Assembly (NCBI GenBank): GCA_045612885.1 | Contig: JAZKZZ010000015.1 | Coordinates: 5,431 to 69,430, forward strand | From: Bacilli bacterium | GTDB taxonomy: Bacteria; Bacillota_I; Bacilli_A; RFN20; DUOF01 | Reading direction: 5' to 3' | Length of the DNA: 64,000 bases | Part shown: positions 18,667 through 63,615 of the stretch, one piece after another | Layout: the number at the start of each line of letters is the position of its first letter | Position numbering within the stretch: the first letter of the stretch is position 1 | The notes under the pieces: generated by a model | Told to the model about the DNA's origin: nothing | Databases searched by the model: none | The model's input: the letters and a program-made list of their open reading frames with translations, nothing else | Translations under genes and position numbers: made by a program

Positions 18667-19386
18667 TTACTTTCTTGTATTAATATTTTTGCTATTTTTA
18701 TTTAGAATATTTAAAATTGCATCTTTTAGCATTTTAACATTTGGATAAAAATCCTCATCATAATCGTTATCTAAATCTTCATATGGAAAAACTAAAATTG
18801 TTTTAAGTAATATTTCTTGTGGAATGGTAATAATGCCTGACTTTTCCCCAAAAATTGTATTTTTACTAATGCATATATCATTATGCGTAAAATTATCAAT
18901 TAATTTACTACCATCAGAAAGAATCACATCAACGTTCATTTTAAACGAAGGGAGTCTAAAATCATAAATTATATTTTTTGTTTTAATATCATACCCACGA
19001 ATGCACATATCATCAAGTTGATTTTTTCTATATTTCTTTTTTATTTTTTCAAAAGCCTCTGCTTTTTCTTCATTTTCATTTAATGAAACAATGAAAAAAC
19101 CACCTAACAACACTTCAGATTTAATATTAACATCGTTATTAATCATTTCTAATTCTTCTATTAATTCCTCTACACTAACTTTAATCATTTTATTAGAAAA
19201 TATTCTTGAATATTCATTGTTTAATAATTCATTTATATTTTTTATTTCTTCGTTATATTTCTCTTTTATTTGATTTAATTCTTCACAAAGTTTAATACGC
19301 TTTTCTTTTAATTCTTGTATTTTTATTAAAATCTCATTTAACTCTTTATCCACAATATCACTTTCTTTCAATATTTTGACTATCAA
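18667..19386 (-). CDS. Hypothetical protein, 239 aa. Coiled-coil N-terminus and an unknown C-terminal domain.
   Basis: Third gene of a tight three-gene unit. 29-nt overlap with the preceding ORF. Confidence 0.6.
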   Translation of the reverse strand: MIVKILKESDIVDKELNEILIKIQELKEKRIKLCEELNQIKEKYNEEIKNINELLNNEYSRIFSNKMIKVSVEELIEELEMINNDVNIKSEVLLGGFFIVSLNENEEKAEAFEKIKKKYRKNQLDDMCIRGYDIKTKNIIYDFRLPSFKMNVDVILSDGSKLIDNFTHNDICISKNTIFGEKSGIITIPQEILLKTILVFPYEDLDNDYDEDFYPNVKMLKDAILNILNKNSKNINTRK

Positions 19387-19840
19387 GATGCTTTTTACAA
19401 TTATTTATTGCATTCTCAATCTTTAAAAAATATTCTTTATATTCATTTCTTAAATCTTCTAATTTGCTTAGTAATCTGTTTTCCCTTAAAATAAAATCCT
19501 CTTTTTCTCTAACTAAAGTTTCATTGCACCAATCAAGCATTTTTTGAGCATTTTCTTCCTTATTATCAAAATTGTTTAAAACATATTCCATCCATTTATC
19601 TGATAAAATAAAACTCATTCTTCCAGATATTGAATGAATATAAAACTCACATAAAGAATATTGCACATAGCAAGGTCCTCTAAAGTTATTTCCTTCAAGT
19701 CTCACCTTACTTCCACTTATAAACTCTTCATTATCTTCAACTAAAATTAATCCTGAACCCTTATACACGTTTTCATCCCAACTATATCCATTTTCTAATA
19801 AAAATTTCTTTATATCGCTATTTTTAACTCTAAACCCCAT
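19358..19840 (-). CDS. Hypothetical protein, 160 aa
   Basis: Middle gene of the unit. Its start lies 3 nt after the upstream stop. Confidence 0.6.
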   Translation of the reverse strand: MGFRVKNSDIKKFLLENGYSWDENVYKGSGLILVEDNEEFISGSKVRLEGNNFRGPCYVQYSLCEFYIHSISGRMSFILSDKWMEYVLNNFDNKEENAQKMLDWCNETLVREKEDFILRENRLLSKLEDLRNEYKEYFLKIENAINNCKKHLDSQNIERK

Positions 19841-19842
19841 AG

Positions 19843-20625
19843 TTATTTCCTCCTATAAATGTCTTTATTGTTGATTTCTTTATATTGTCTAGTAGCTAAT
19901 TTTTCCAGTATTCTTATTGCCGCCTTTTTATACTTGTGTTCAGCATTAAATAATAAGATTGATTTAGCAAATGTGAACGCCAATACTTCATCTTTTTCTA
20001 CTAGAACATTAATATTTTTAAATCCATATTTTTTTGTCTCATTAAGAAGATTTTTTATTATTTTTGCATTCATATCTCTTAAATGTTTTTTTGATTCTTT
20101 ACTATCTTTTTCACTATATTCTAGAATGATATCTATATATTCTTGATATATTTCATTTGCATCTTCATACACTATATAATCATTTTCACGTTCAGCTTTT
20201 TTAAAGATACCATTAAGAAGAATTTTATATTCTTTAACTAAATTAATATCGTTAAGCATCTCTCTTGCCATCATTGCTCTAGCAGTATAATGTGACAAAC
20301 CTTCTTCACCTGGTATATGCACTTCATCTATATATCTAGATATTTTTTCTAATTTTTCTATATCACTTTGAGAAATATCTTCATATCTTATTTTCGCAAA
20401 CAAATCATCATATGTATTAAACTTCAAATTCTTAACTTGATTATCAATTATAATATTTTCTCCAGCATACATAAATAAATACCAGTTTTGGATTGCATGT
20501 ATTTCACCTTTTTCTGCTAATAGTTTCAAGTTTTCTAACATACTGTCTGTATATCCATCAAGCAAATATTTACACCAACAAGTAATAAAATCACTGTATA
20601 AGTTAGAAATTTTTCCTCTAGTCAT
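19843..20625 (-). CDS. Hypothetical protein, 260 aa
   Basis: First gene of the unit. Preceded by a TTGAAA-17-TAAAAT promoter-like sequence at 20650-20678. Confidence 0.6.
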   Translation of the reverse strand: MTRGKISNLYSDFITCWCKYLLDGYTDSMLENLKLLAEKGEIHAIQNWYLFMYAGENIIIDNQVKNLKFNTYDDLFAKIRYEDISQSDIEKLEKISRYIDEVHIPGEEGLSHYTARAMMAREMLNDINLVKEYKILLNGIFKKAERENDYIVYEDANEIYQEYIDIILEYSEKDSKESKKHLRDMNAKIIKNLLNETKKYGFKNINVLVEKDEVLAFTFAKSILLFNAEHKYKKAAIRILEKLATRQYKEINNKDIYRRK

Positions 20626-56213: not shown

Positions 56214-56340
56214 CTCATTAAAATTAGAATATCATAAATTATGCTCCATTTAATCAATATATACGATTTATTTTAAAAATTTAGAAAATACTAAGGACAA
56301 TTATTTATTATTTTATATAATAAACTAAGAGGTGTTTTAG

Positions 56341-58092
56341 ATGGAAAAAGTAGTTAATTACACATATTATGCAATATTGCAAGATGATAATAACTTAATT
56401 AAAAAAGATAAAATTTTTGTTCAGCATAATAATGCAAGATTACTATTTCCAATAAGTTTTGATAAAGAAACATTGGAAAAAAACTACAGCATATATAAAG
56501 AGATGCTCGAAGAAGGATTTATACATAGTCAAGAAATTAATAAATTATCATTTAACCTGTTAGAAATACATAAAAGTTTAACCTGTGATAATTGGAAAAT
56601 TTTAATTGATTTTGCAAAAGAACATAATATCAATTTTAGAGTCAATATCAAAGAAGAATATACTCCCGAGGAAATGTCTAATTATATCCAATCTTTTATA
56701 AAAAAAGAAAATGGCATAGAAACATTTGTTTTTAAAAGAGAACAATTAGAAAACCCAGAAAATCCATTTCTAGAAGGTATAGAAAATGATGAAAATATTT
56801 TTAAAGATTCAAATGTAAATACTTGTTTTTATATTAACAATGAATTTAGAGATAATTTCAAGTCGCAAATTCATAAATCACTAGAAAGATTTAATGGCCA
56901 GATGACATTAAATTTACAAAGTGGTAAAAGTTTCGATAATGACGCTAAGGAAGAAGTGATTTGGAGGATTAATTACTTAAAAGAAAATTACCCTGATAAA
57001 AAAATTGATATCACTTTTTCGACTGCTAATAGATATTATCTTAAAGAGGAATTCATTAAAATTTTAGAAATCGAAGAATACATCAAAAATAACTATAATC
57101 CTGAATATGAGTTGCGATTTACAGGAAATAATAAATTTTACAATAAAGAACAAATAGTATCCGCTAATAGTAAAATTAATAGAACAGTAGATAAATTAAA
57201 ACTTTCTAATTTATCACCATACGAAAAAGTAATGTTTATAACAAAATTATTAAATGAAAAAAAGTATTACAAATGTAAAAGTAATGATTCTCTTTCAAGA
57301 GATTTATATAGCATATTAAACACTAGAAATATTATCTGTACAGGATATGCTTATTTGATGGATGTAATCTTAAATGAATTAAATGATGAAAATATCAAAT
57401 CTAAAAGTGAAACTATTATTCAAACTGATTATTTTAACCAAGAAGAATATCATGAAGTCAATTGTGTTTATATAAAAGATGAAAAATATGGCATTGAAGG
57501 ATATTATAACTTAGATATTAATTTTTATGGGGAAAATTATAATCATTTTATGACTCCAGTAACAGATATCGATTCATTGTATGCGTCTCGATATAAATCT
57601 GTACTAAAAGCTACAGAAACAACAAGGGGAAATCTTGGTGATCAAACCATGCCAATTTATCCTAATAATGAAAGCTACTATACTATTTTTACTAAATTAA
57701 AAAATAGTAATAATTGGCAAGATAATGTATTAAATAGTACAAAACAATTTTTAAGTACCCCTATGGGAAATAAAATAGCAGACAATATGGGAATTACCAT
57801 CAAAAAAGATTCAGACGCATTAAAAATCATTAATGAGATAATAGCTCAATCTCCCCCTATACCTATTGAATGCACACAAAAAGCATTAGAAGTAGTAAGT
57901 AAGTCATATTTAGGATTAAACAGTGCTCAAGCAGCAGAATATTCAAGAAATAAAATCGTAGAAAATATTTTTGATAGTTTGTTTTTACAAGAAAGAAAAA
58001 ATTGTAAAAATTGTTTTGCTAAACTTAGTAAAGAAATTGAAGAAGAAAATCTAAATAAAAATAAGGTGTGTCACGATTCTAGACATATTTGA
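56341..58092 (+). CDS. Cytoplasmic transglutaminase-like (papain-fold Cys-His-Asp) protein, 583 aa
   Basis: NIICTGYAYLMDVIL (CxGxA nucleophile context), then HEVNCVYI, then YYNLD, spaced like a transglutaminase-core triad. No signal peptide. Confidence 0.55.
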   Translation: MEKVVNYTYYAILQDDNNLIKKDKIFVQHNNARLLFPISFDKETLEKNYSIYKEMLEEGFIHSQEINKLSFNLLEIHKSLTCDNWKILIDFAKEHNINFRVNIKEEYTPEEMSNYIQSFIKKENGIETFVFKREQLENPENPFLEGIENDENIFKDSNVNTCFYINNEFRDNFKSQIHKSLERFNGQMTLNLQSGKSFDNDAKEEVIWRINYLKENYPDKKIDITFSTANRYYLKEEFIKILEIEEYIKNNYNPEYELRFTGNNKFYNKEQIVSANSKINRTVDKLKLSNLSPYEKVMFITKLLNEKKYYKCKSNDSLSRDLYSILNTRNIICTGYAYLMDVILNELNDENIKSKSETIIQTDYFNQEEYHEVNCVYIKDEKYGIEGYYNLDINFYGENYNHFMTPVTDIDSLYASRYKSVLKATETTRGNLGDQTMPIYPNNESYYTIFTKLKNSNNWQDNVLNSTKQFLSTPMGNKIADNMGITIKKDSDALKIINEIIAQSPPIPIECTQKALEVVSKSYLGLNSAQAAEYSRNKIVENIFDSLFLQERKNCKNCFAKLSKEIEEENLNKNKVCHDSRHI

Positions 58093-58158
58093 ATATAATA
58101 ACTATTTTATAAACTTTTTTAAGTTTAATTGATATAATAATAAAAAGGAGTGATGTGA

Positions 58159-58623
58159 GTGGAATCTATTTTAGAAATAATGCCCTGGATTTGGGGAGGC
58201 ATATTTGTAGTGACTCTTGTTATAGAATTTGAAAGTTCTGATTTGGATGCTTTATGGTTTTCAATCGGTGCATTAGTATCGCTTATTGTGGATTTATTCT
58301 TCCCTGAATTAGGAATAGTATGGCAACTTCTAATATTCATTCTAACAACTGTTTTGTTACTATTCACTTTAGGACGTTGGGCTAAAAAGAAATTTAGGAC
58401 AGAACATATTTCTACTAACGCGGATGCTTTAGTAGGTAAAGAAATTCTAATTTTAGAGGATTGTAGTGAATTTGATAAAGGTAGTGGGTCTGTAAATGAT
58501 GTTGTATGGACAACTATTTGTCAATCAGGATATTCTTTAAAAAAAGGTGATCATGCAATTATAGTTGCAATTGAAGGTAATAAACTTATAGTAAAAAACA
58601 AGGAGGAAGAAAAAAATGTCTAA
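58159..58623 (+). CDS. NfeD-like membrane protein (partner of SPFH proteins)
   Basis: N-terminal TM helices plus a C-terminal OB-fold-like segment. 8-nt overlap with the downstream SPFH gene. Confidence 0.75.
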   Translation: MESILEIMPWIWGGIFVVTLVIEFESSDLDALWFSIGALVSLIVDLFFPELGIVWQLLIFILTTVLLLFTLGRWAKKKFRTEHISTNADALVGKEILILEDCSEFDKGSGSVNDVVWTTICQSGYSLKKGDHAIIVAIEGNKLIVKNKEEEKNV

Positions 58624-59536
58624 TGTTGTTATTTTTATTTTAATAGCACTAGCTATATTTGTACTTATAATTATTTCAAAATCAATTGTTGTCGTTAAAC
58701 AATCAACAGCTTATGTTATAGAAAGATTAGGAGCTTATAATAGAACTTTAGGAGTAGGATTACATGTTATTGTGCCATTCTTTGATAGAATAGCAAATAA
58801 AGTAACATTAAAAGAAACAGTAGAGGATTTTCCTCCTCAACCAGTTATCACAAAAGATAATGTTACAATGCAAATTGACACTGTTGTATATTTTCAAATA
58901 ACAGATCCAAAATTATTTGCATATGGAGTTCATAATCCTATTAATGCATTAGCGAATCTGACTGCTACTACATTAAGAAACATCATTGGTGACTTGGAGT
59001 TAGATGAAACTCTAACAAGTAGAGATACTATTAATGGTAAAATGCGTTTAATCCTTGATGAAGCTACTGATCCTTGGGGTATTAAAGTTAATAGAGTGGA
59101 AGTTAAAAATATTCTTCCTCCTAGGGATATTCAAGATGCTATGGAAAAACAAATGAGAGCAGAAAGAGAAAGAAGAGAAGCTATTCTTAAAGCTGAAGGA
59201 GAAAAGAAAGCTGCAATCCTAACAGCAGAGGGTGAAAAAGAATCAACAATCCTTAGAGCAGAAGCTAAAAAACAAGCTGAAATTGCAGAAGCAGAAGGTA
59301 AAGCAGAAGCGCAAAAACTACTTGCAGATGCTCAAGCATACTCAATAGATGTAATTAATAAAGCTAATCCTAATATGGCTTATGTTACTTTAAAAGGTTA
59401 TGAGTCTTTGGAAAAAGTTGCTAATGGACAATCTACAAAGCTTATTATCCCATCTAATTTACAAGAAAGTGCAAGTTTTATCTCTTCATTAGCAGAAGTT
59501 GCTACAACAAAAAAAGCTAAAGAAGAAAAAAAATAA
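58616..59536 (+). CDS. SPFH/band-7 (stomatin/prohibitin-like) protein
   Basis: N-terminal TM anchor. SPFH core (YFQITDP...ALANLTATTLRNIIG). Coiled-coil EA-rich C-terminal tail. Confidence 0.9.
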   Translation: MSNVVIFILIALAIFVLIIISKSIVVVKQSTAYVIERLGAYNRTLGVGLHVIVPFFDRIANKVTLKETVEDFPPQPVITKDNVTMQIDTVVYFQITDPKLFAYGVHNPINALANLTATTLRNIIGDLELDETLTSRDTINGKMRLILDEATDPWGIKVNRVEVKNILPPRDIQDAMEKQMRAERERREAILKAEGEKKAAILTAEGEKESTILRAEAKKQAEIAEAEGKAEAQKLLADAQAYSIDVINKANPNMAYVTLKGYESLEKVANGQSTKLIIPSNLQESASFISSLAEVATTKKAKEEKK

Positions 59537-59547
59537 GTAATAAAAAA

Positions 59548-59575
59548 CTTAGATAATGTTATCTAAGTTTTTTTA
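59548..59575. terminator. Bidirectional terminator between the SPFH gene (+) and the 429-aa gene (-)
   Basis: cttagataa-tg-ttatctaag palindrome with an A-run on the left and T8 on the right. Confidence 0.7.
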
Positions 59576-60862
59576 TTTTCTAGAATTAATTGGATCATAT
59601 TTTATCATATAATCATGTAAGATATTCATTGTTAAAATATTAATATCTTTTAATGTTAATGTTCCTATATATTCTATGTTTTTTTCTATTTCTTTAATTG
59701 ATTTATCTTTAGTAGTTTTATCTATTATTCCATCATAAAAATTGAATCCGTCTTCATAATTGTAATAGAACCTACCATGCATTATTGAGTTACGCAATTT
59801 ATTAAAATCTATTTTGCAGTCTTTTAAATATTCTTTTACACTTTCTGGATCCATATATGTGAAAATACTAAATAAAATATTATTGGCAAGACAGGCTTCA
59901 AATCTTGATGGATACCCAAGATAATCTTGAATAGCTATTATATCTACAGGTTCTTCTTTTTCTATTTTACTATCGAAAACCTTATGCATAAATTCATTTC
60001 TAGTGATGTATTTATCTTTTAATATCGATAAGTAATTTATTGTCATACAACAATCTTTGATGGCGTTATTAGCATTGCATTTAAATGGGAATTTTAGTAT
60101 AAAGAACGAGGGATCGTAAGGGTGTATTCCCATATTTATAGTAGCTTCATCTAATCCATCACTATTTTTAATTATACAATTATATAAGGCTTTCTTTTGA
60201 AGTTTATCCATTGGAATATCAACTTTAGCATTTGGATCAAAAGCATGTATATATTTATGGACATTAAAAGGATTAAGTTTCTTATTCAATACAGCATTAC
60301 TTAACCTACTTGCATACATACTAATTCCTAAACTAGGAGGATTAATAGCATTAGTTAGGTATATATTAGCTAGGCTAACCAATTCATCAATATGTATTTT
60401 TAACTTGATTTCTTGAGATTTTAATTTTCTATGAATAATTACATTATCTTTATCATCCCACATCCAATTAGGAACTATATTTCCATCATCATTATGTGCA
60501 AAAGATTGTCTTATAATATCAAATAATTTTTTAGAATTAATTGTCTTTAAATTGCCATTTACATCAATATTAAATTTTAATTTAGAAAAATCCTTTTTAC
60601 TCTTCTTTAATGATTCATCAAAATTATCATTTACTACCTCATACAAATAGACAAAATATTGCGTTATTAAAGACCTCATAGTCAATCTTTTCATATGAGT
60701 TAATAAGCTATAGTGTTGCTCTTTATAGTATTTATTTAAACTATCTGGCAAATGATTCATTAACTTAGTATTAGGCACATATTTCCATTCATATAAAGTA
60801 TGATAAAAAAACAATTGAACTAATAAAGAATATCTATTTCCTTTCATAACTTCATTACTCAT
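59573..60862 (-). CDS. Hypothetical 429-aa protein with a C-terminal HEPN-like R-N-x3-H-G motif (candidate Abi-like RNase)
   Basis: KLRNSIMHGRFYY near the C-terminus fits the Rx4-6H HEPN signature. The rest is unrecognised. Confidence 0.5.
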   Translation of the reverse strand: MSNEVMKGNRYSLLVQLFFYHTLYEWKYVPNTKLMNHLPDSLNKYYKEQHYSLLTHMKRLTMRSLITQYFVYLYEVVNDNFDESLKKSKKDFSKLKFNIDVNGNLKTINSKKLFDIIRQSFAHNDDGNIVPNWMWDDKDNVIIHRKLKSQEIKLKIHIDELVSLANIYLTNAINPPSLGISMYASRLSNAVLNKKLNPFNVHKYIHAFDPNAKVDIPMDKLQKKALYNCIIKNSDGLDEATINMGIHPYDPSFFILKFPFKCNANNAIKDCCMTINYLSILKDKYITRNEFMHKVFDSKIEKEEPVDIIAIQDYLGYPSRFEACLANNILFSIFTYMDPESVKEYLKDCKIDFNKLRNSIMHGRFYYNYEDGFNFYDGIIDKTTKDKSIKEIEKNIEYIGTLTLKDINILTMNILHDYMIKYDPINSRK

Positions 60863-61026
60863 ATTACCACTCCAACAATATTTTATTAGAGTTAGTTATG
60901 AGTGTCAATTATAATATTTTACTCACAATAATAGTATCTATGTAGACAACAACATTTTGTATAGATGCAGCAACTAAACAAGCTATTAATCTGTTTGAAA
61001 GAAAAGGTGATTATAGTGTTTCGTAC

Positions 61027-61389
61027 TTGAGATATATCATACAAATTGCTCAAGAAAACATAGAGAAAGAGTTCAACTATCCAGTCAGTGAATACTCGGA
61101 CTGGTATATAGTTAAGTGTAAGATGACTGATGAAGAAGCTAGACAGTCAGAGATGGAACACAGAGTATTTCAAATAACAGAGAATAGGAAGATAATCTCA
61201 CTATTCACTGAAGAATTGAAAAAGAGAGAAGAGTTAACTATGGATGAAATCTATAATCATCTGAAAGATAAGTATTACTTGTGTGTTAGTAAAGATAAGA
61301 GTGAGAGTGACTCATATATGAAAGGTGTATATGTAGGCGTGGCACTAGCATATCAAGACATATGTCAGTTGCTTAAGATGGAGTTATGA
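61027..61389 (+). CDS. Small ORF (120 aa, TTG start) inside a GC-richer segment. Probably a 5'-truncated gene remnant.
   Basis: The frame stays open back to 60946 with no ATG and no good SD. Codon usage is unlike the host. Confidence 0.35.
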   Translation: MRYIIQIAQENIEKEFNYPVSEYSDWYIVKCKMTDEEARQSEMEHRVFQITENRKIISLFTEELKKREELTMDEIYNHLKDKYYLCVSKDKSESDSYMKGVYVGVALAYQDICQLLKMEL

Positions 61390-61577
61390 CATACAAGGAA
61401 CAACTAAATGAGTTCAAGAGTCAAGATAGACTAAATCATGTAGAGATAGCAATAGCACTGGAAGTAGAATCATACTTTGAGAATGCAAGTGATGATCAAT
61501 TTGAATCTATATGCAGTTACATCAAAAGAATCTACCATACTAAGAGCAGAAGCCAAAAAGTTAGCCCAAATAGCTGA
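61386..61577 (+). CDS. Small ORF (63 aa), ATGA-coupled to the previous one, running into the SPFH-fragment frame junction
   Basis: Overlapping start/stop atgA. C-terminus out of frame with the adjacent SPFH fragment. Confidence 0.3.
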   Translation: MTYKEQLNEFKSQDRLNHVEIAIALEVESYFENASDDQFESICSYIKRIYHTKSRSQKVSPNS

Positions 61578-61809
61578 AGCAGAAGGGCAAGCACAGGCTG
61601 AAAAAGCCATATACGAGGCACAAGCTTATGGTATTAAAATAGTCAACGAAGCCAACCCAGGAAATGCTTACTTAACGATAAAAGCCTATGAGGCACTGAA
61701 AAATCTAGCAGAGGGCCAATCGACTAAAATCATAGTTCCTTCTAATTTACAAGAACTGGCAGGCCTAATCACTTCTATAAAAGAAATCGCTGACGACAAA
61801 AATAAATAA
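61537..61809 (+). pseudogene. 3' fragment (last ~90 codons) of a second, divergent SPFH/band-7 gene. No start codon.
   Basis: It encodes SKESTILRAEAKK...AQAYGIKIVNEANPGNAYLTIKAYEALKNLAEGQSTKIIVPSNLQE. This is colinear with the C-terminus of the intact SPFH at 59230-59536 (KESTILRAEAKK...GQSTKLIIPSNLQE) and shows clear nucleotide divergence from it. Confidence 0.7.
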
Positions 61810-61821
61810 CACGCATGTAAA

Positions 61822-61858
61822 AACCTCCAAAGTAGAAAAATCTATCTGGAGGTTTTCT
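61822..61858 (+). terminator. Rho-independent terminator after the SPFH fragment
   Basis: cctcca-(17-nt loop)-tggagg followed by ttttctt. Confidence 0.55.
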
Positions 61859-61964
61859 TGTGCGCTCCCACTTTAATTCGCATTTGAATTCTACAATGCG
61901 GTAAACAAGATCATAAGCGTACACATCTACTATACTTATAAATCTTTTGTTTTTATAGTAAAAG

Positions 61965-62507
61965 TTAGAATCTAAATTGTTTTATTTCTGCGTTTTTAAA
62001 ACTTCTTAAATGATTATCATTATTAAAATCAACATCAATCTGTAAAAGCAAGTCTTCTAAAAACGTAGCATTGCAATTATGCGTTATGATTAATATACTA
62101 TCAAACACGCAATTATTTTTTATGTCTATAAGAAAATCTTTTGTTCTATCATACGCACTTTGATAACTTTCCATACCACAAGATTCTGACCTGGAATATT
62201 TAAGTGTTTTTTCCTTTTCAGTCAAATCATATTTGCTTCTACCTGTAAAAATCCCTTGATCTATTTCAATAAGTCTTTTGTCTTTTATAACTTTTACATT
62301 ATGAAATTTATTCATTATGTTTGCAGTTTGCACAGTTCTCATAAGTGGTGAGCAATAGATTATATCGAAATTAGTATTCTTATATTTTTCAGCGACCTCT
62401 TCTGTCAACGCTATTCCTTTTTTGCTTAGCCTATTATTAGTATGTCCTTGTGTAATACCTTTTTCATTCCAAATTGTTGTCCCATGTCTCATTATATACA
62501 ATTTCAT
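61965..62507 (-). CDS. Histidine phosphatase (phosphoglycerate-mutase-like superfamily)
   Basis: N-terminal LYIMRHGTT (RHG catalytic motif) and a later H in ITHN. 180 aa. Confidence 0.8.
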   Translation of the reverse strand: MKLYIMRHGTTIWNEKGITQGHTNNRLSKKGIALTEEVAEKYKNTNFDIIYCSPLMRTVQTANIMNKFHNVKVIKDKRLIEIDQGIFTGRSKYDLTEKEKTLKYSRSESCGMESYQSAYDRTKDFLIDIKNNCVFDSILIITHNCNATFLEDLLLQIDVDFNNDNHLRSFKNAEIKQFRF

Positions 62508-62726
62508 TTACACATCTCCTAAACACATCATTAATTCTTCTTATATACTTATTGTAAATCAGTTGATTGCATTTTTCAAGCAACTAAAAAAAGCAATTTG
62601 TTTTGTTTTTTACAAATTAATTGCATATTATGATGACAATATTGTAATTATCTGTAATTCCCTAGATAAATCCTTAAAAAGAAAAAACAAACCCTTTAAT
62701 TTAAAAGAGTTCGCATATGACTTTCA

Positions 62727-62800
62727 TGGTGCTCTTTACCAGAATTGAACTGATACTTAATCCTTACCATGGATTTGGTCTACCATTAACCTAAAAGAGC
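62727..62800 (-). tRNA. tRNA-Thr (anticodon GGU), 74 nt, CCA encoded. Not represented in the ORF track.
   Basis: Hand-folded cloverleaf: acceptor GCTCTTT/AAAGAGC; D-loop AATGGTA; anticodon stem AATCC/GGATT; loop ATGGTAA (U33, GGU, A37); T-arm ATCAG-TTCAATT-CTGGT; discriminator A; CCA. Confidence 0.8.
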
Positions 62801-62810
62801 AAGTGTAATT

Positions 62811-62839
62811 ATTATCTATTAAAAAACTATAGTTTTCAA
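62811..62839 (-). promoter_or_regulatory. Sigma-A promoter TTGAAA-17-GATAAT, about 10 nt upstream of the tRNA-Thr 5' end
   Basis: Minus strand: ttgaaa actatagttttttaata gataat, ending 10 nt before the mature 5' G. Confidence 0.6.
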
Positions 62840-62878
62840 TAGTTTTAGTTACTTTTATACACCTACAAATTGCATATA

Positions 62879-62910
62879 TAAAAAAGCCTTTATTGATAAG
62901 GCTTTTTTAA
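62879..62910 (-). terminator. Terminator overlapping the stop of the biotin ligase gene
   Basis: aagcctt-attgat-aaggctt hairpin with flanking A and T runs. Confidence 0.6.
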
Positions 62911-63615
62911 TACTATTTCTCCACTAGATATTTTTCCCAATTTATCATCTTTTTTTATTAATAAGCAATTGTCTTCATCTATTCCTATAATTTCAATTAA
63001 TATTTCTTTATCATTTTGTTTTAAATATGCTGTTTTATTCTTTAAATAATTATTTTCTTTAACTACTTGTAAATATGAATTATCATCATTTTTAAGTTTT
63101 TTTAACATATTAATAATTTTTGAGTATAATACTTTTTTTATATTATTTAAATTTTTCTTATCTTTAGTTTCCAAGAAAATTGAAGTGGCAGGAATCTCAA
63201 ATTCGCTAGAATTAACATTTAATCCTATTCCAATAACTATAGCTTCAATATCATTTCCATTGGATATTCCCTCTAATAATATACCTGATATCTTTTTATC
63301 ATTTACATATACGTCATTAGGCCACTTAATAGATACATTTACTACATTTAATTCTAATAATAATTCATAAACACAAACAGCACTAGCTAAAGATAAAGAT
63401 GCATATCTGTTAATTATGCTTTTATCTTTAATAAGAACAGAAAAAAGGAGATCTTCTCCTTTTTTACTAATCCAAACACGATTATATCTTCCATGCCCTT
63501 TAAATTGGAAATCAGCACTAACAAAAGTTAAATTTTTTTCATTTGTATAATTATTCTTTAAATATATAGATGTAGAATCAATTTCACTAAAATGATACTC
63601 TTTCATCTCAATCAC
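62890..63615 (-). CDS. birA: Biotin--[acetyl-CoA-carboxylase] ligase, group I (no N-terminal HTH)
   Basis: GHGRYNRVW (GRGRxGRxW-type biotin-binding loop). BPL_LplA_LipB fold. 241 aa. Confidence 0.8.
   Translation of the reverse strand: MIEMKEYHFSEIDSTSIYLKNNYTNEKNLTFVSADFQFKGHGRYNRVWISKKGEDLLFSVLIKDKSIINRYASLSLASAVCVYELLLELNVVNVSIKWPNDVYVNDKKISGILLEGISNGNDIEAIVIGIGLNVNSSEFEIPATSIFLETKDKKNLNNIKKVLYSKIINMLKKLKNDDNSYLQVVKENNYLKNKTAYLKQNDKEILIEIIGIDEDNCLLIKKDDKLGKISSGEIVLKKPYQ

Follow-up and report, generated by a model that had tools for sequence, protein, structure and literature searches.

A probable recombination scar joining a piece of a tRNA-Thr island to a foreign SPFH gene end in a Bacilli bacterium

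A segment of about 1 kb (60940-61940) in a 64,000-nucleotide stretch of DNA from a Bacilli bacterium (the window) is probably a non-functional recombination scar and not a gene set: a piece of a tRNA-Thr island is fused to the tail of a foreign SPFH gene. The initial annotation had described a mosaic of truncated foreign genes, either the remnant of a mobile element or the footprint of recombination. Both the remnant and illegitimate recombination found support, the former in 579 bp of the island with 93.8% nucleotide identity to relatives, the latter in a microhomology of 9-13 nucleotides that joins the island piece to the foreign SPFH end. The source contig is possibly from a metagenome assembly, and the joints were read from the assembled contig.

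The segment has a GC content of 35.4%, compared with 27.7% for the whole window, and is the GC-richest 1-kb stretch of the 64 kb: no other 1-kb stretch is as high (z = 2.8), and in tetranucleotide distance the segment has a z-score of 4.0. These sliding-window checks had been proposed by the initial annotation, and they place the segment at the extreme of the window and not inside host variance. The annotation was right to call it GC-richer and foreign-looking, but its figures of high 30s against about 25% were somewhat exaggerated; 39% is reached in the SPFH fragment only. GC3 (GC at third codon positions) is a sharper composition test than overall GC: the gene fragments ORF1', ORF2' and SPFH' have values of 0.33, 0.30 and 0.30, respectively, against a mean of 0.163 (standard deviation 0.029) for the genes of the window, and values of 0.298 or more occur in just 0.14% of 94-codon windows within these genes.

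The left part of the scar (60958-61536) corresponds to an internal piece of the island at loci L002 and L012 of relatives (93.8% nucleotide identity), with sharp ends inside two genes; nucleotide identity to the island of L004, L005 and L007 is 75%. ORF1' (60956-61389, forward strand) is an island gene of about 155 amino acids at full length that lacks its first 12 codons: its homologues (P0001-P0009) have 153-161 amino acids, and ORF1' aligns to them from 'CIDAATKQ' onward. The 120-amino-acid ORF with a TTG start (61027-61389) is the in-frame remainder of ORF1', and its frame is open upstream from position 60946, after a TAG stop. In ORF1', 17 codons differ synonymously from L012 and 11 non-synonymously, and none is a stop; an AlphaFold model of ORF1 had too low a confidence to be of use (pLDDT 51). 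ORF2' (61386-61535, forward strand) consists of the first 50 codons of the next gene of the island and is 98% identical to L002 over 50 amino acids (tblastn). The listed 63-amino-acid ORF (61386-61577) is ORF2' running into out-of-frame SPFH sequence. Homologues of ORF2 have 93 amino acids, with full-length versions in L004, L007 and L012, or are longer forms fused to a DUF3846 domain; the description of the 120- and 63-amino-acid ORFs as truncated genes stands, as the homologues of both are longer. The arrangement of ORF1 and then ORF2 with an ATGA overlap is collinear with the island genes, as expected of an island remnant. No other island genes (integrase, replication genes) were found elsewhere in the 64-kb window, indicating an island remnant and not an element. 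Blastn of 60863-61964 against phage and plasmid collections returned no matches, no relatives of ORF1 were found in IMG/VR, and ORF1', ORF2', the 429-amino-acid protein to the left of the scar and a 583-amino-acid protein had no match in Pfam, PHROG, PADLOC or NCBIfam. No contig with exactly the SPFH, histidine phosphatase or P0014 sequence of the window was retrieved.

The parent is a small integrative island of related gut Bacilli. It encodes a tyrosine integrase, a DUF927 primase-helicase, DUF3846 and VWA proteins, members of the ORF1 and ORF2 families and sometimes a DprA-like protein, and it adjoins tRNA-Thr(GGT), its integration target. The order in L005 is tRNA-Thr, ORF1, ORF2, DUF3846, VWA, DUF927 primase-helicase and integrase, followed by a repeat of the tRNA 5' half; L004, L007 and L012 have the same island order. 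The island-borne tRNA 5' half is common to L002, L004, L005, L007 and L012, and the island-borne att arm is identical between L005 and L007. The island family rebuilds the 5' half of its target tRNA, and a mismatched hybrid tRNA was left in at least one host. Phage satellites and tRNA-gene islands (PICI-like, P4-like) carry an integrase and a primase-helicase. The parent island resembles them in its tyrosine integrase, DUF927/primase-helicase, small accessory genes and tRNA target with duplicated att (PHROG and Pfam matches), and also in being GC-richer than its hosts and near-identical in several species. Unlike these islands, it supplies the 5' half of the tRNA and a promoter and not the usual 3' part, and because no capsid, packaging or regulatory hallmarks were identified we do not class it as a PICI. 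The window, in turn, has just the 579 bp, on the wrong side of the tRNA.

The right part of the scar, SPFH' (61528-61809, forward strand), is made up of the last 93 codons and the stop codon of a 'B type' SPFH gene that is foreign by identity and GC3. An out-of-frame junction into the 3' end of an SPFH gene had been noted before and is indeed present: the SPFH sequence starts at 61524 or 61528, in a frame that differs from that of ORF2. At the amino acid level, SPFH' is 95.6%, 93.4% and 91% identical to the full-length sister-lineage genes P0075, P0070 and P0064, respectively, but only 61.5% identical to the C-terminus of the resident SPFH protein of the window. Nucleotide identity to L016 is 80.5%; of the codon differences, 40 are synonymous and 7 non-synonymous, and the frame has no stop. 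By these identities and by its GC3, the fragment comes from a GC-richer sister lineage and is not a copy of the resident gene. No donor above about 80% nucleotide identity was present among the sequences searched, and a metagenome scan with the fragment returned just distant SPFH genes (57% identity or less). Directly after the stop codon lies the intrinsic-terminator hairpin of the foreign gene (61812-61864, forward strand; -23.8 kcal/mol, z = -6.3 against shuffles), followed by TTTTCTT. The initial annotation had recognised this terminator, which a simple terminator scan missed because of its long loop; it is kept in the full-length gene of L016, whose match extends through the hairpin to 61859. 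The GC-rich spacer that follows (61865-61964; forward-strand folding z = -3.4) has no match in any fetched locus and no Rfam hit. The gene downstream of SPFH in L016 was considered as a histidine phosphatase, and hence as a donor-type arrangement, but it is another gene.

The resident SPFH/Band-7 gene (58616-59536, forward strand; 306 amino acids, 'A type', Pfam Band_7 1.8e-40) is intact. Together with NfeD and the 429-amino-acid gene it is collinear with the closest relative, L007, at about 84% nucleotide identity. L007 and L008 are both collinear with the resident SPFH at backbone-like identity, and its GC3 (0.12 in the 5' part, 0.09 in the 3' part) is like that of the host; by synteny and composition, it is the native copy. 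From the names of SPFH homologues, the host is an Erysipelotrichales-like member of the Bacilli. Our first hypothesis was an element that integrates into the 3' part of SPFH genes and brings its own replacement end. Positions 61524-61809 would then be the displaced native tail, the tail from 59236 onward would be element-borne, and the 429-amino-acid gene and ORF1'/ORF2' would be cargo. As with known elements in the 3' ends of protein genes, accessory DNA separates the intact gene from a second, diverged copy of its 3' end: a direct repeat (59236-59536 and 61524-61809, 72-78% nucleotide identity) flanks 2.3 kb of accessory DNA, there seemed at first sight to be two C-terminal types with similar overall N-terminal identity, and a second truncated B-type tail, in L017, is broken within about 20 nucleotides of the same place. 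However, it is the resident tail whose GC3 fits its own 5' part and the host, and the 'displaced' tail that is foreign, the opposite of what this mechanism produces. Moreover, the SPFH genes of L007 and L008 end in the A-type tail, a displaced fragment is missing there and the downstream genes differ. An integrase is absent, and what borders the joint on the left is the interior of a gene from an island whose target is tRNA-Thr and not SPFH. When identity is followed along the protein, the N- and C-termini both diverge gradually between clades, with intermediates (P0054, P0058) as in ordinary divergence and not as in a module swap, while tail and core co-diverge within clade A. GC3, synteny and this identity profile largely refute the element, and we give it a minimal chance. 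Two discrete, swapped C-terminal 'modules' were also rejected, as divergence starts about 18 codons past the joint, the N-terminus is affected too and intermediates exist.

The two parts of the scar meet at AAAAGAATC(TACC) (61524-61536, forward strand), a recombination joint with microhomology identified by alignment with both parental types. ORF2 in L012, L002 and L007 and SPFH in L016, L012 and L017 have 9 perfectly common nucleotides here, and the microhomology would reach up to 13 nucleotides if the donor gene had synonymous TCT ACC codons. AAAAGAATC is thus common to both parents and homology switches at most 4 nucleotides after it, as expected of a crossover at short homology. In every relative the gene order is SPFH, variable genes, tRNA-Thr, ORF1, ORF2; the slot between SPFH and tRNA-Thr holds variable accessory genes. 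The order of the pieces in the window is a circular permutation of this order, so that the joint of an ORF2 5' part with an SPFH 3' part is reciprocal to the one that a deletion would leave. The permuted order points to a joint of the duplication, aberrant-excision or foreign-DNA-insertion type and not to a simple deletion. A tandem duplication in situ, spanning the SPFH 3' end, tRNA-Thr and the ORF2 5' end and followed by deletions, would have the right joint orientation, with microhomology, would fit the gene order of the relatives and would involve no foreign DNA. However, the two SPFH tails are of different clades and share just 61.5% of amino acids and about 72% of nucleotides, their GC3 values are 0.30 and 0.09, and the prevalence of synonymous differences to clade-B genes (40 versus 7) reflects purifying selection, indicating that SPFH' diverged as a working gene in another lineage. 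A recent duplication in situ is ruled out by the divergence of the tails and an ancient one by the intact reading frames; there is next to no chance of it.

At the left junction, homology to L007 upstream of the 429-amino-acid gene ends at about 60908-60916 and island homology begins at about 60956. Between the ends of the two homologies lies a filler of about 47 nucleotides (60909-60955) that has no match elsewhere among the fetched loci. The 429-amino-acid gene itself (59573-60862, reverse strand), with a promoter-like TTGACA-17-TAAAAT at 60908-60880, is the left neighbour of the scar, lies outside it and is in the same place in L007. It encodes two Rx4H (HEPN-type) motifs, R117-x4-H122 and R356-N357-x3-H361, both invariant in the 38 members of its family, eight of which match the Pfam HEPN family pEK499_p136. 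The family with these two HEPN motifs is uncharacterised, and no structural relative of it was found.

Comparison across genomes, which the initial annotation had also proposed, revealed that L007 has 206 nucleotides in place of 60917-62725. The histidine phosphatase gene to the right of the scar (61965-62507, reverse strand; Pfam His_Phos_1) is therefore missing at this position in L007, and it may have arrived with the foreign block. With the third highest GC3 of 56 genes (0.221) it is only mildly atypical, so the right-hand limit of the foreign DNA can be placed no more closely than between 61865 and 62726. Further right, 0.9 kb from the scar, is the attachment site of the island family, a native and unoccupied tRNA-Thr(GGT) (62727-62800, reverse strand; ARAGORN and Rfam) with the att core CCTTACCATGG at 62762-62772; Rfam found nothing besides this tRNA in 59400-63000. 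The 3' half of the tRNA is identical to the native 3' half in L007, and 8 of the 39 positions of its 5' half differ from the island-borne version. The island fragment lies 1.2 kb from the tRNA on its 3' side, not on the 5' side between att repeats, and the tRNA has no island-borne 5' half. The att core of the island is absent from both joints of the scar, making integrase-mediated recombination there unlikely.

As the pieces derive from different lineages, all relatives found are metagenomic and the source contig has no second copy in the searched collections, the contig could be an assembly chimera that joins reads of two or three related organisms from a mixed sample. False joins usually occur at long conserved repeats, however, and the 9-13 common nucleotides on one side, with none on the other side where the filler lies, are far below the k-mer lengths at which they arise in graph assemblers. 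The flanks also fit a single genome, with the tRNA 3' half identical to that of L007 and the left flank collinear with it. We consider a chimera highly unlikely.

The chance is very slim that ORF1' (120 amino acids), the 63-amino-acid ORF or a C-terminal SPFH peptide (105-110 amino acids) is a functional small gene, expressed and retained by selection. All three frames are without internal stops, ORF2' retains its native ribosome-binding sequence (GGAG before ATG), and short proteins of the SPFH C-terminus only are common among database matches, but most of these matches come from contigs of 0.5-2.5 kb, whose ends may have cut off the rest of the gene. Moreover, the start codon and 12 conserved residues are missing from ORF1', no ribosome-binding site precedes its TTG, the last 13 residues of the 63-amino-acid product are out of frame, the promoter-proximal region of the island is gone, and the same truncated forms occur in no second genome of those searched. 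Nowhere in the scar are a start signal and an intact frame found together, so no function is expected.

The joint of the scar could have arisen in a genome in which a B-type SPFH gene and the island are close together, as in L012. Illegitimate recombination between ORF2 of the island and the flanking SPFH gene would make the joint, either by aberrant excision, as for specialised transducing particles, or by tandem duplication. The block from ORF1 through the ORF2'/SPFH' joint to the terminator, possibly with the histidine phosphatase and the tRNA flank, would then have entered the lineage and been fixed beside the native tRNA-Thr through recombination at the tRNA or close to it. At 60909-60957, another illegitimate event would have removed the tRNA-proximal end of the island and the first 36 nucleotides of ORF1. 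Alternatively, in one step, a resident copy of the island could have acquired sister-lineage DNA at a microhomology, by homology-facilitated illegitimate recombination (HFIR), with this DNA taking the place of the rest of the island. Against the proposed origin of the scar, the intermediate is carried by no sampled genome, two or more illegitimate joints are required and the filler is not accounted for. The sole candidates for a homologous anchor on the other side are tRNA-Thr and its flank, and the tRNA is fully native; since its 3' half is identical to the native one of L007, the imported block would end at or before the tRNA, with a short homologous anchor only. It is a tentative idea, and rather unlikely, that the region from 60958 to about 62726, with the island piece, SPFH', terminator, spacer, histidine phosphatase gene and tRNA flank, stems from the integration of a tRNA-Thr island that had been excised aberrantly.

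In the Campbell model, the specialised transducing genomes lambda dgal and dbio are products of aberrant (illegitimate) excision of integrated elements. Like them, the scar joins element and neighbouring chromosome at a short common sequence, the one within ORF2 and the other within SPFH, and it combines an att-proximal part of the element with adjacent host DNA in circularly permuted order. Unlike in these genomes, the att-proximal end and the tRNA copy are deleted and the integrase end is absent; there is also no sign of packaging or of a helper for the island, and the scar is known from sequence alone. HFIR resembles the scar in that foreign DNA from a diverged relative is joined by a microhomology of few bases on one side; tRNA-Thr and its flank would be the candidate homologous region on the other. 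For transformable bacteria, such joints are on record with lengths of 3-10 bp (PMC6382021; the studies of de Vries & Wackernagel 2002, Prudhomme et al. 2002 and Meier & Wackernagel 2003 are cited as summarised there). The 9-13 nucleotides of the scar are at the upper end of this range or above it, the possible anchor is very short and a second illegitimate joint is needed.

The scar is ordinary genome wear and tear and in itself matters little; its main practical use is in annotation, where the 120-, 63- and 105/110-amino-acid ORFs should be entered as pseudogene fragments. It is unusually legible, with both parental sequences identifiable and the crossover placed to within a few bases, and its permuted order shows that island and chromosomal flank recombined and moved together. 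The rebuilding of the tRNA by the island, the accessory slot between SPFH and tRNA-Thr and the 429-amino-acid HEPN-motif family may be worth more than the scar. If the region were indeed the product of an aberrantly excised island, a satellite-like island would have carried flanking chromosomal genes between species of gut Bacilli and been caught before decay, so that specialised transfer by an island would be seen here to cross a species boundary in nature.

Between a 429-aa gene (59573-60862, minus strand) and a histidine phosphatase gene (61965-62507, minus strand) lies the compositionally most extreme kilobase of the window: its GC content is 35.4%, compared with 27.7% for the whole window (z = 2.8), no other 1-kb window across the 64 kb attains this value, and its tetranucleotide distance has a z of 4.0. 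Third-codon GC (GC3) sets the segment apart more clearly than overall GC: it is 0.33 in ORF1' (a 120-aa ORF extended upstream), 0.30 in ORF2' (the first 50 codons of the next gene) and 0.30 in an SPFH fragment, against 0.163 ± 0.029 in 56 window genes, and a value of 0.298 or more occurs in just 0.14% of 94-codon windows. The GC-richer segment described by the initial annotation is borne out, and the reading frames are laid out as described there: a 120-aa ORF with a TTG start (61027-61389, plus strand; frame open upstream to 60946), a 63-aa ORF coupled to it by an ATGA overlap (61386-61577, plus strand), the 3' end of an SPFH gene in a different frame from the 63-aa ORF (from 61524/61528 to 61809, plus strand) and a strong terminator hairpin (61812-61864, plus strand; -23.8 kcal/mol, z = -6.3). 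The GC-rich spacer between this foreign terminator and the histidine phosphatase gene (61865-61964) folds on its plus strand beyond shuffled sequences (z = -3.4); it has no Rfam match and no counterpart in any retrieved locus.

Used as query in a protein search, the extended ORF1 frame returned 13 relatives, mostly of 153-161 aa; the first 12 codons are missing from ORF1' and the alignment begins at 'CIDAATKQ'. At the DNA level, 60958-61536 is 93.8% identical to the metagenomic contigs L002 and L012, two contigs with the same sequence throughout this stretch. The match breaks off abruptly, 36 nt into ORF1 at the left and past codon 50 of ORF2 at the right; usual forms of ORF2 are a 93-aa gene or the N-terminal portion of a DUF3846 protein. 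In the relatives, ORF1 and ORF2 are the start of a small island directly adjoining tRNA-Thr(GGT). Its order in L005, a Bacilli MAG, is tRNA-Thr, ORF1, ORF2, DUF3846, VWA, zinc-ribbon protein, DUF927 primase-helicase, tyrosine integrase and a repeated tRNA 5' half; the same gene order is found in L004, L007 (the closest relative) and L012, with a DprA-like gene as an extra in L002 and L012. GC content is 31-35% in the islands versus 28% in the hosts. The island was not found in IMG/VR or in the phage and plasmid collections searched, and the window contains no further island genes besides the ORF1' and ORF2' pieces.

The island/tRNA arrangement was compared between L005 (9686-9830 and 18806-18905), L007 (12508-12680) and the window (62727-62870). 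The anticodon loop of tRNA-Thr(GGT) is where this island family inserts, and the tRNA 5' half and about 100 nt of upstream sequence come from the island, with the integrase adjoining the displaced 5' half. The arrangement mirrors that of typical tRNA-integrating elements, in which the 3' part is replaced. In the hybrid tRNA of L007 the acceptor and anticodon stems contain mismatched pairs (G4.G69, C5.A68, G28.A40), and the island may therefore damage its target tRNA in this host. Right of the L005 island the tRNA 5' half occurs twice in succession, about 1 kb apart (18806-18905 and 19795-19893), which suggests a second, decayed tandem insertion; 8 kb leftwards (1441-1533) there is another, separate relic, made up of the tRNA 3' end with its flank.

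The window also has an intact, resident NfeD-SPFH operon (58159-59536). Judged by sequence, the fragment at 61528-61809 is no copy of the resident SPFH tail: the two share 61.5% amino acid and about 72% nucleotide identity. Among full-length homologues, the resident gene clusters with P0049-P0057 (A type) and the fragment with P0058-P0077 (B type; 95.6% identity to P0075, 93.4% to P0070 and 91% to P0064). In DNA the fragment shares just 79-81% identity with the B-type genes sampled, and the codon differences are 40 synonymous and 7 non-synonymous with zero stops, indicating that it had been part of a functional gene evolving in a different lineage until its recent truncation. The match to the B-type locus L016 extends past the SPFH end through the terminator hairpin as far as 61859. 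GC3 (0.30 in the fragment versus 0.09 in the resident tail and 0.12 in the resident 5' part) marks the fragment as foreign and the resident gene as native; even the GC-richest sampled B-type gene, that of L016, stays below the fragment (0.22-0.25). The native status of the resident gene is supported by the collinearity of SPFH, NfeD and the 429-aa gene with L007 (83.7% nucleotide identity, near the backbone value of 81%) and by the identity profile along the SPFH protein, in which a nearly invariant core is flanked by two regions of A/B divergence, residues 1-30 and those from about 226 on. A swapped C-terminal module was rejected, as both termini differ and P0054 and P0058 are intermediates between the types, consistent with ordinary lineage divergence. 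No displaced SPFH fragment was found in L007 or L008.

One further B-type tail, 91% identical to the window fragment, sits in frame behind the first 39 codons of a P-type ATPase on a 665-bp contig (L017 1-665; ENA ERZ28633767 scaffold_242803), a fusion that may be a small-contig artefact. The breakpoints of L017 and the window are 12-20 nt apart, both within a purine-rich tract (periodicity 33 nt) that codes for AEGEK repeats and offers microhomology with many A-rich sequences; with two cases only, the tract may be read as a fragile or permissive, not specific, breakage site.

At the right joint the ORF2 parent reads ...ACATCAAAAGAATCTAC|CTAAAG..., the SPFH parent ...GGCGAAAAAGAATCAACAATAYTAAG... 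and the window ...ACATCAAAAGAATCTACCATACTAAGAG..., and the 9 nt AAAAGAATC are perfectly common to both parents; the shared run could reach 13 nt if the donor gene had synonymous TCT ACC codons. At the left joint, L007-type homology upstream of the 429-aa gene stops at about 60908-60916, with a strong promoter-like site of this gene immediately inside its end, and island homology starts at about 60956, leaving roughly 47 nt without a match in any sequence searched. Neither joint resembles the island att core CCTTACCATGG. That the contig is an assembly chimera is unlikely, as no more than 13 nt are shared at the joints and the flanking sequences on the two sides are mutually consistent.

The chromosomal order in L004, L007 and L012 is NfeD(-SPFH), variable genes, tRNA-Thr, ORF1, ORF2. 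Had SPFH and ORF2 been brought together by a deletion, the SPFH 5' part would be joined to the ORF2 3' part; the window has the reciprocal joint, ORF2 5' part to SPFH 3' part. Possible sources are a tandem duplication, circularisation of the interval by aberrant excision, or incoming DNA joined to the resident island of another genome; the two SPFH tails are too far diverged for a duplication in situ, which is thereby excluded. Our first hypothesis, an element targeting the SPFH 3' end, is rejected by GC3, clade affinity, L007/L008 synteny, the identity profile and this gene order.

The tRNA-Thr of the window (62727-62800, minus strand) is native and unoccupied: its 3' half equals that of L007 exactly. 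The islands bring a 5' half of their own, the same sequence in L005 and L007 with near-identical versions in L002, L004 and L012, and the 5' half of the window tRNA departs from it at 8 of 39 positions. Where L007 has 206 nt, the window has 1.8 kb (60917-62725), consisting of filler, island piece, SPFH tail, terminator, spacer, histidine phosphatase gene and a tRNA 3' flank that resembles L004, L012 and L002, unlike L007. GC3 of the histidine phosphatase gene is 0.22, the third highest in the window, a hint rather than proof that the gene came with the block.

The SPFH-to-tRNA-Thr interval is a variable accessory-gene slot (window 59537-62726; L008 10925-17631; L012 10901-15400; L004 2472-4004). 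Its cargo is a HEPN-like gene (the 429-aa gene) in the window, HD, acetyltransferase, LOR, PemK toxin, metallophosphatase and radical-SAM genes in L008, L009 and L010, HD, KilA-N and two RhuM genes in L012, and NUDIX and histidine phosphatase genes in L004. Upstream, between a 264-aa gene and NfeD, an AT-rich insert (56284-58098) carries a 583-aa orphan gene (56341-58092, plus strand; about 24% GC) with no match in any family library and absent from this position in L007, L008 and L012.

As the most likely history of the scar, two routes are put forward without preference, since neither an intermediate nor a close SPFH donor was found among the sampled sequences. In the first, the joint would have arisen where a B-type SPFH gene and the island adjoin, as in L012, and the block would later have been transferred and fixed next to the native tRNA-Thr, followed by deletion of its att-proximal end. 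In the second, microhomology would have linked DNA of a B-type relative to an island copy already resident, with the incoming DNA taking the place of the island's remainder; such an event would be homology-facilitated illegitimate recombination, which yields joints of 3-10 bp (summarised in PMC6382021). Under either route the product would be dead, because ORF1' has neither a start codon nor a ribosome-binding site and is short of 12 conserved residues, ORF2' continues into 13 out-of-frame codons and the SPFH tail has no start. The alternative that ORF1', the 63-aa ORF or the SPFH tail work as small proteins is unsupported, the same truncated forms occurring in no second genome among those searched.

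The earlier reading as a decayed mobile-element remnant or a footprint of illegitimate recombination is supported by an island fragment and a foreign SPFH end meeting at a 9-nt (at most 13-nt) joint. What remains is an unusually well-resolved but otherwise ordinary scar, left by mobile-element decay and illegitimate recombination. The neighbouring observations, among them the tRNA-rebuilding island, the accessory slot and the orphan gene, are probably worth more than the scar.
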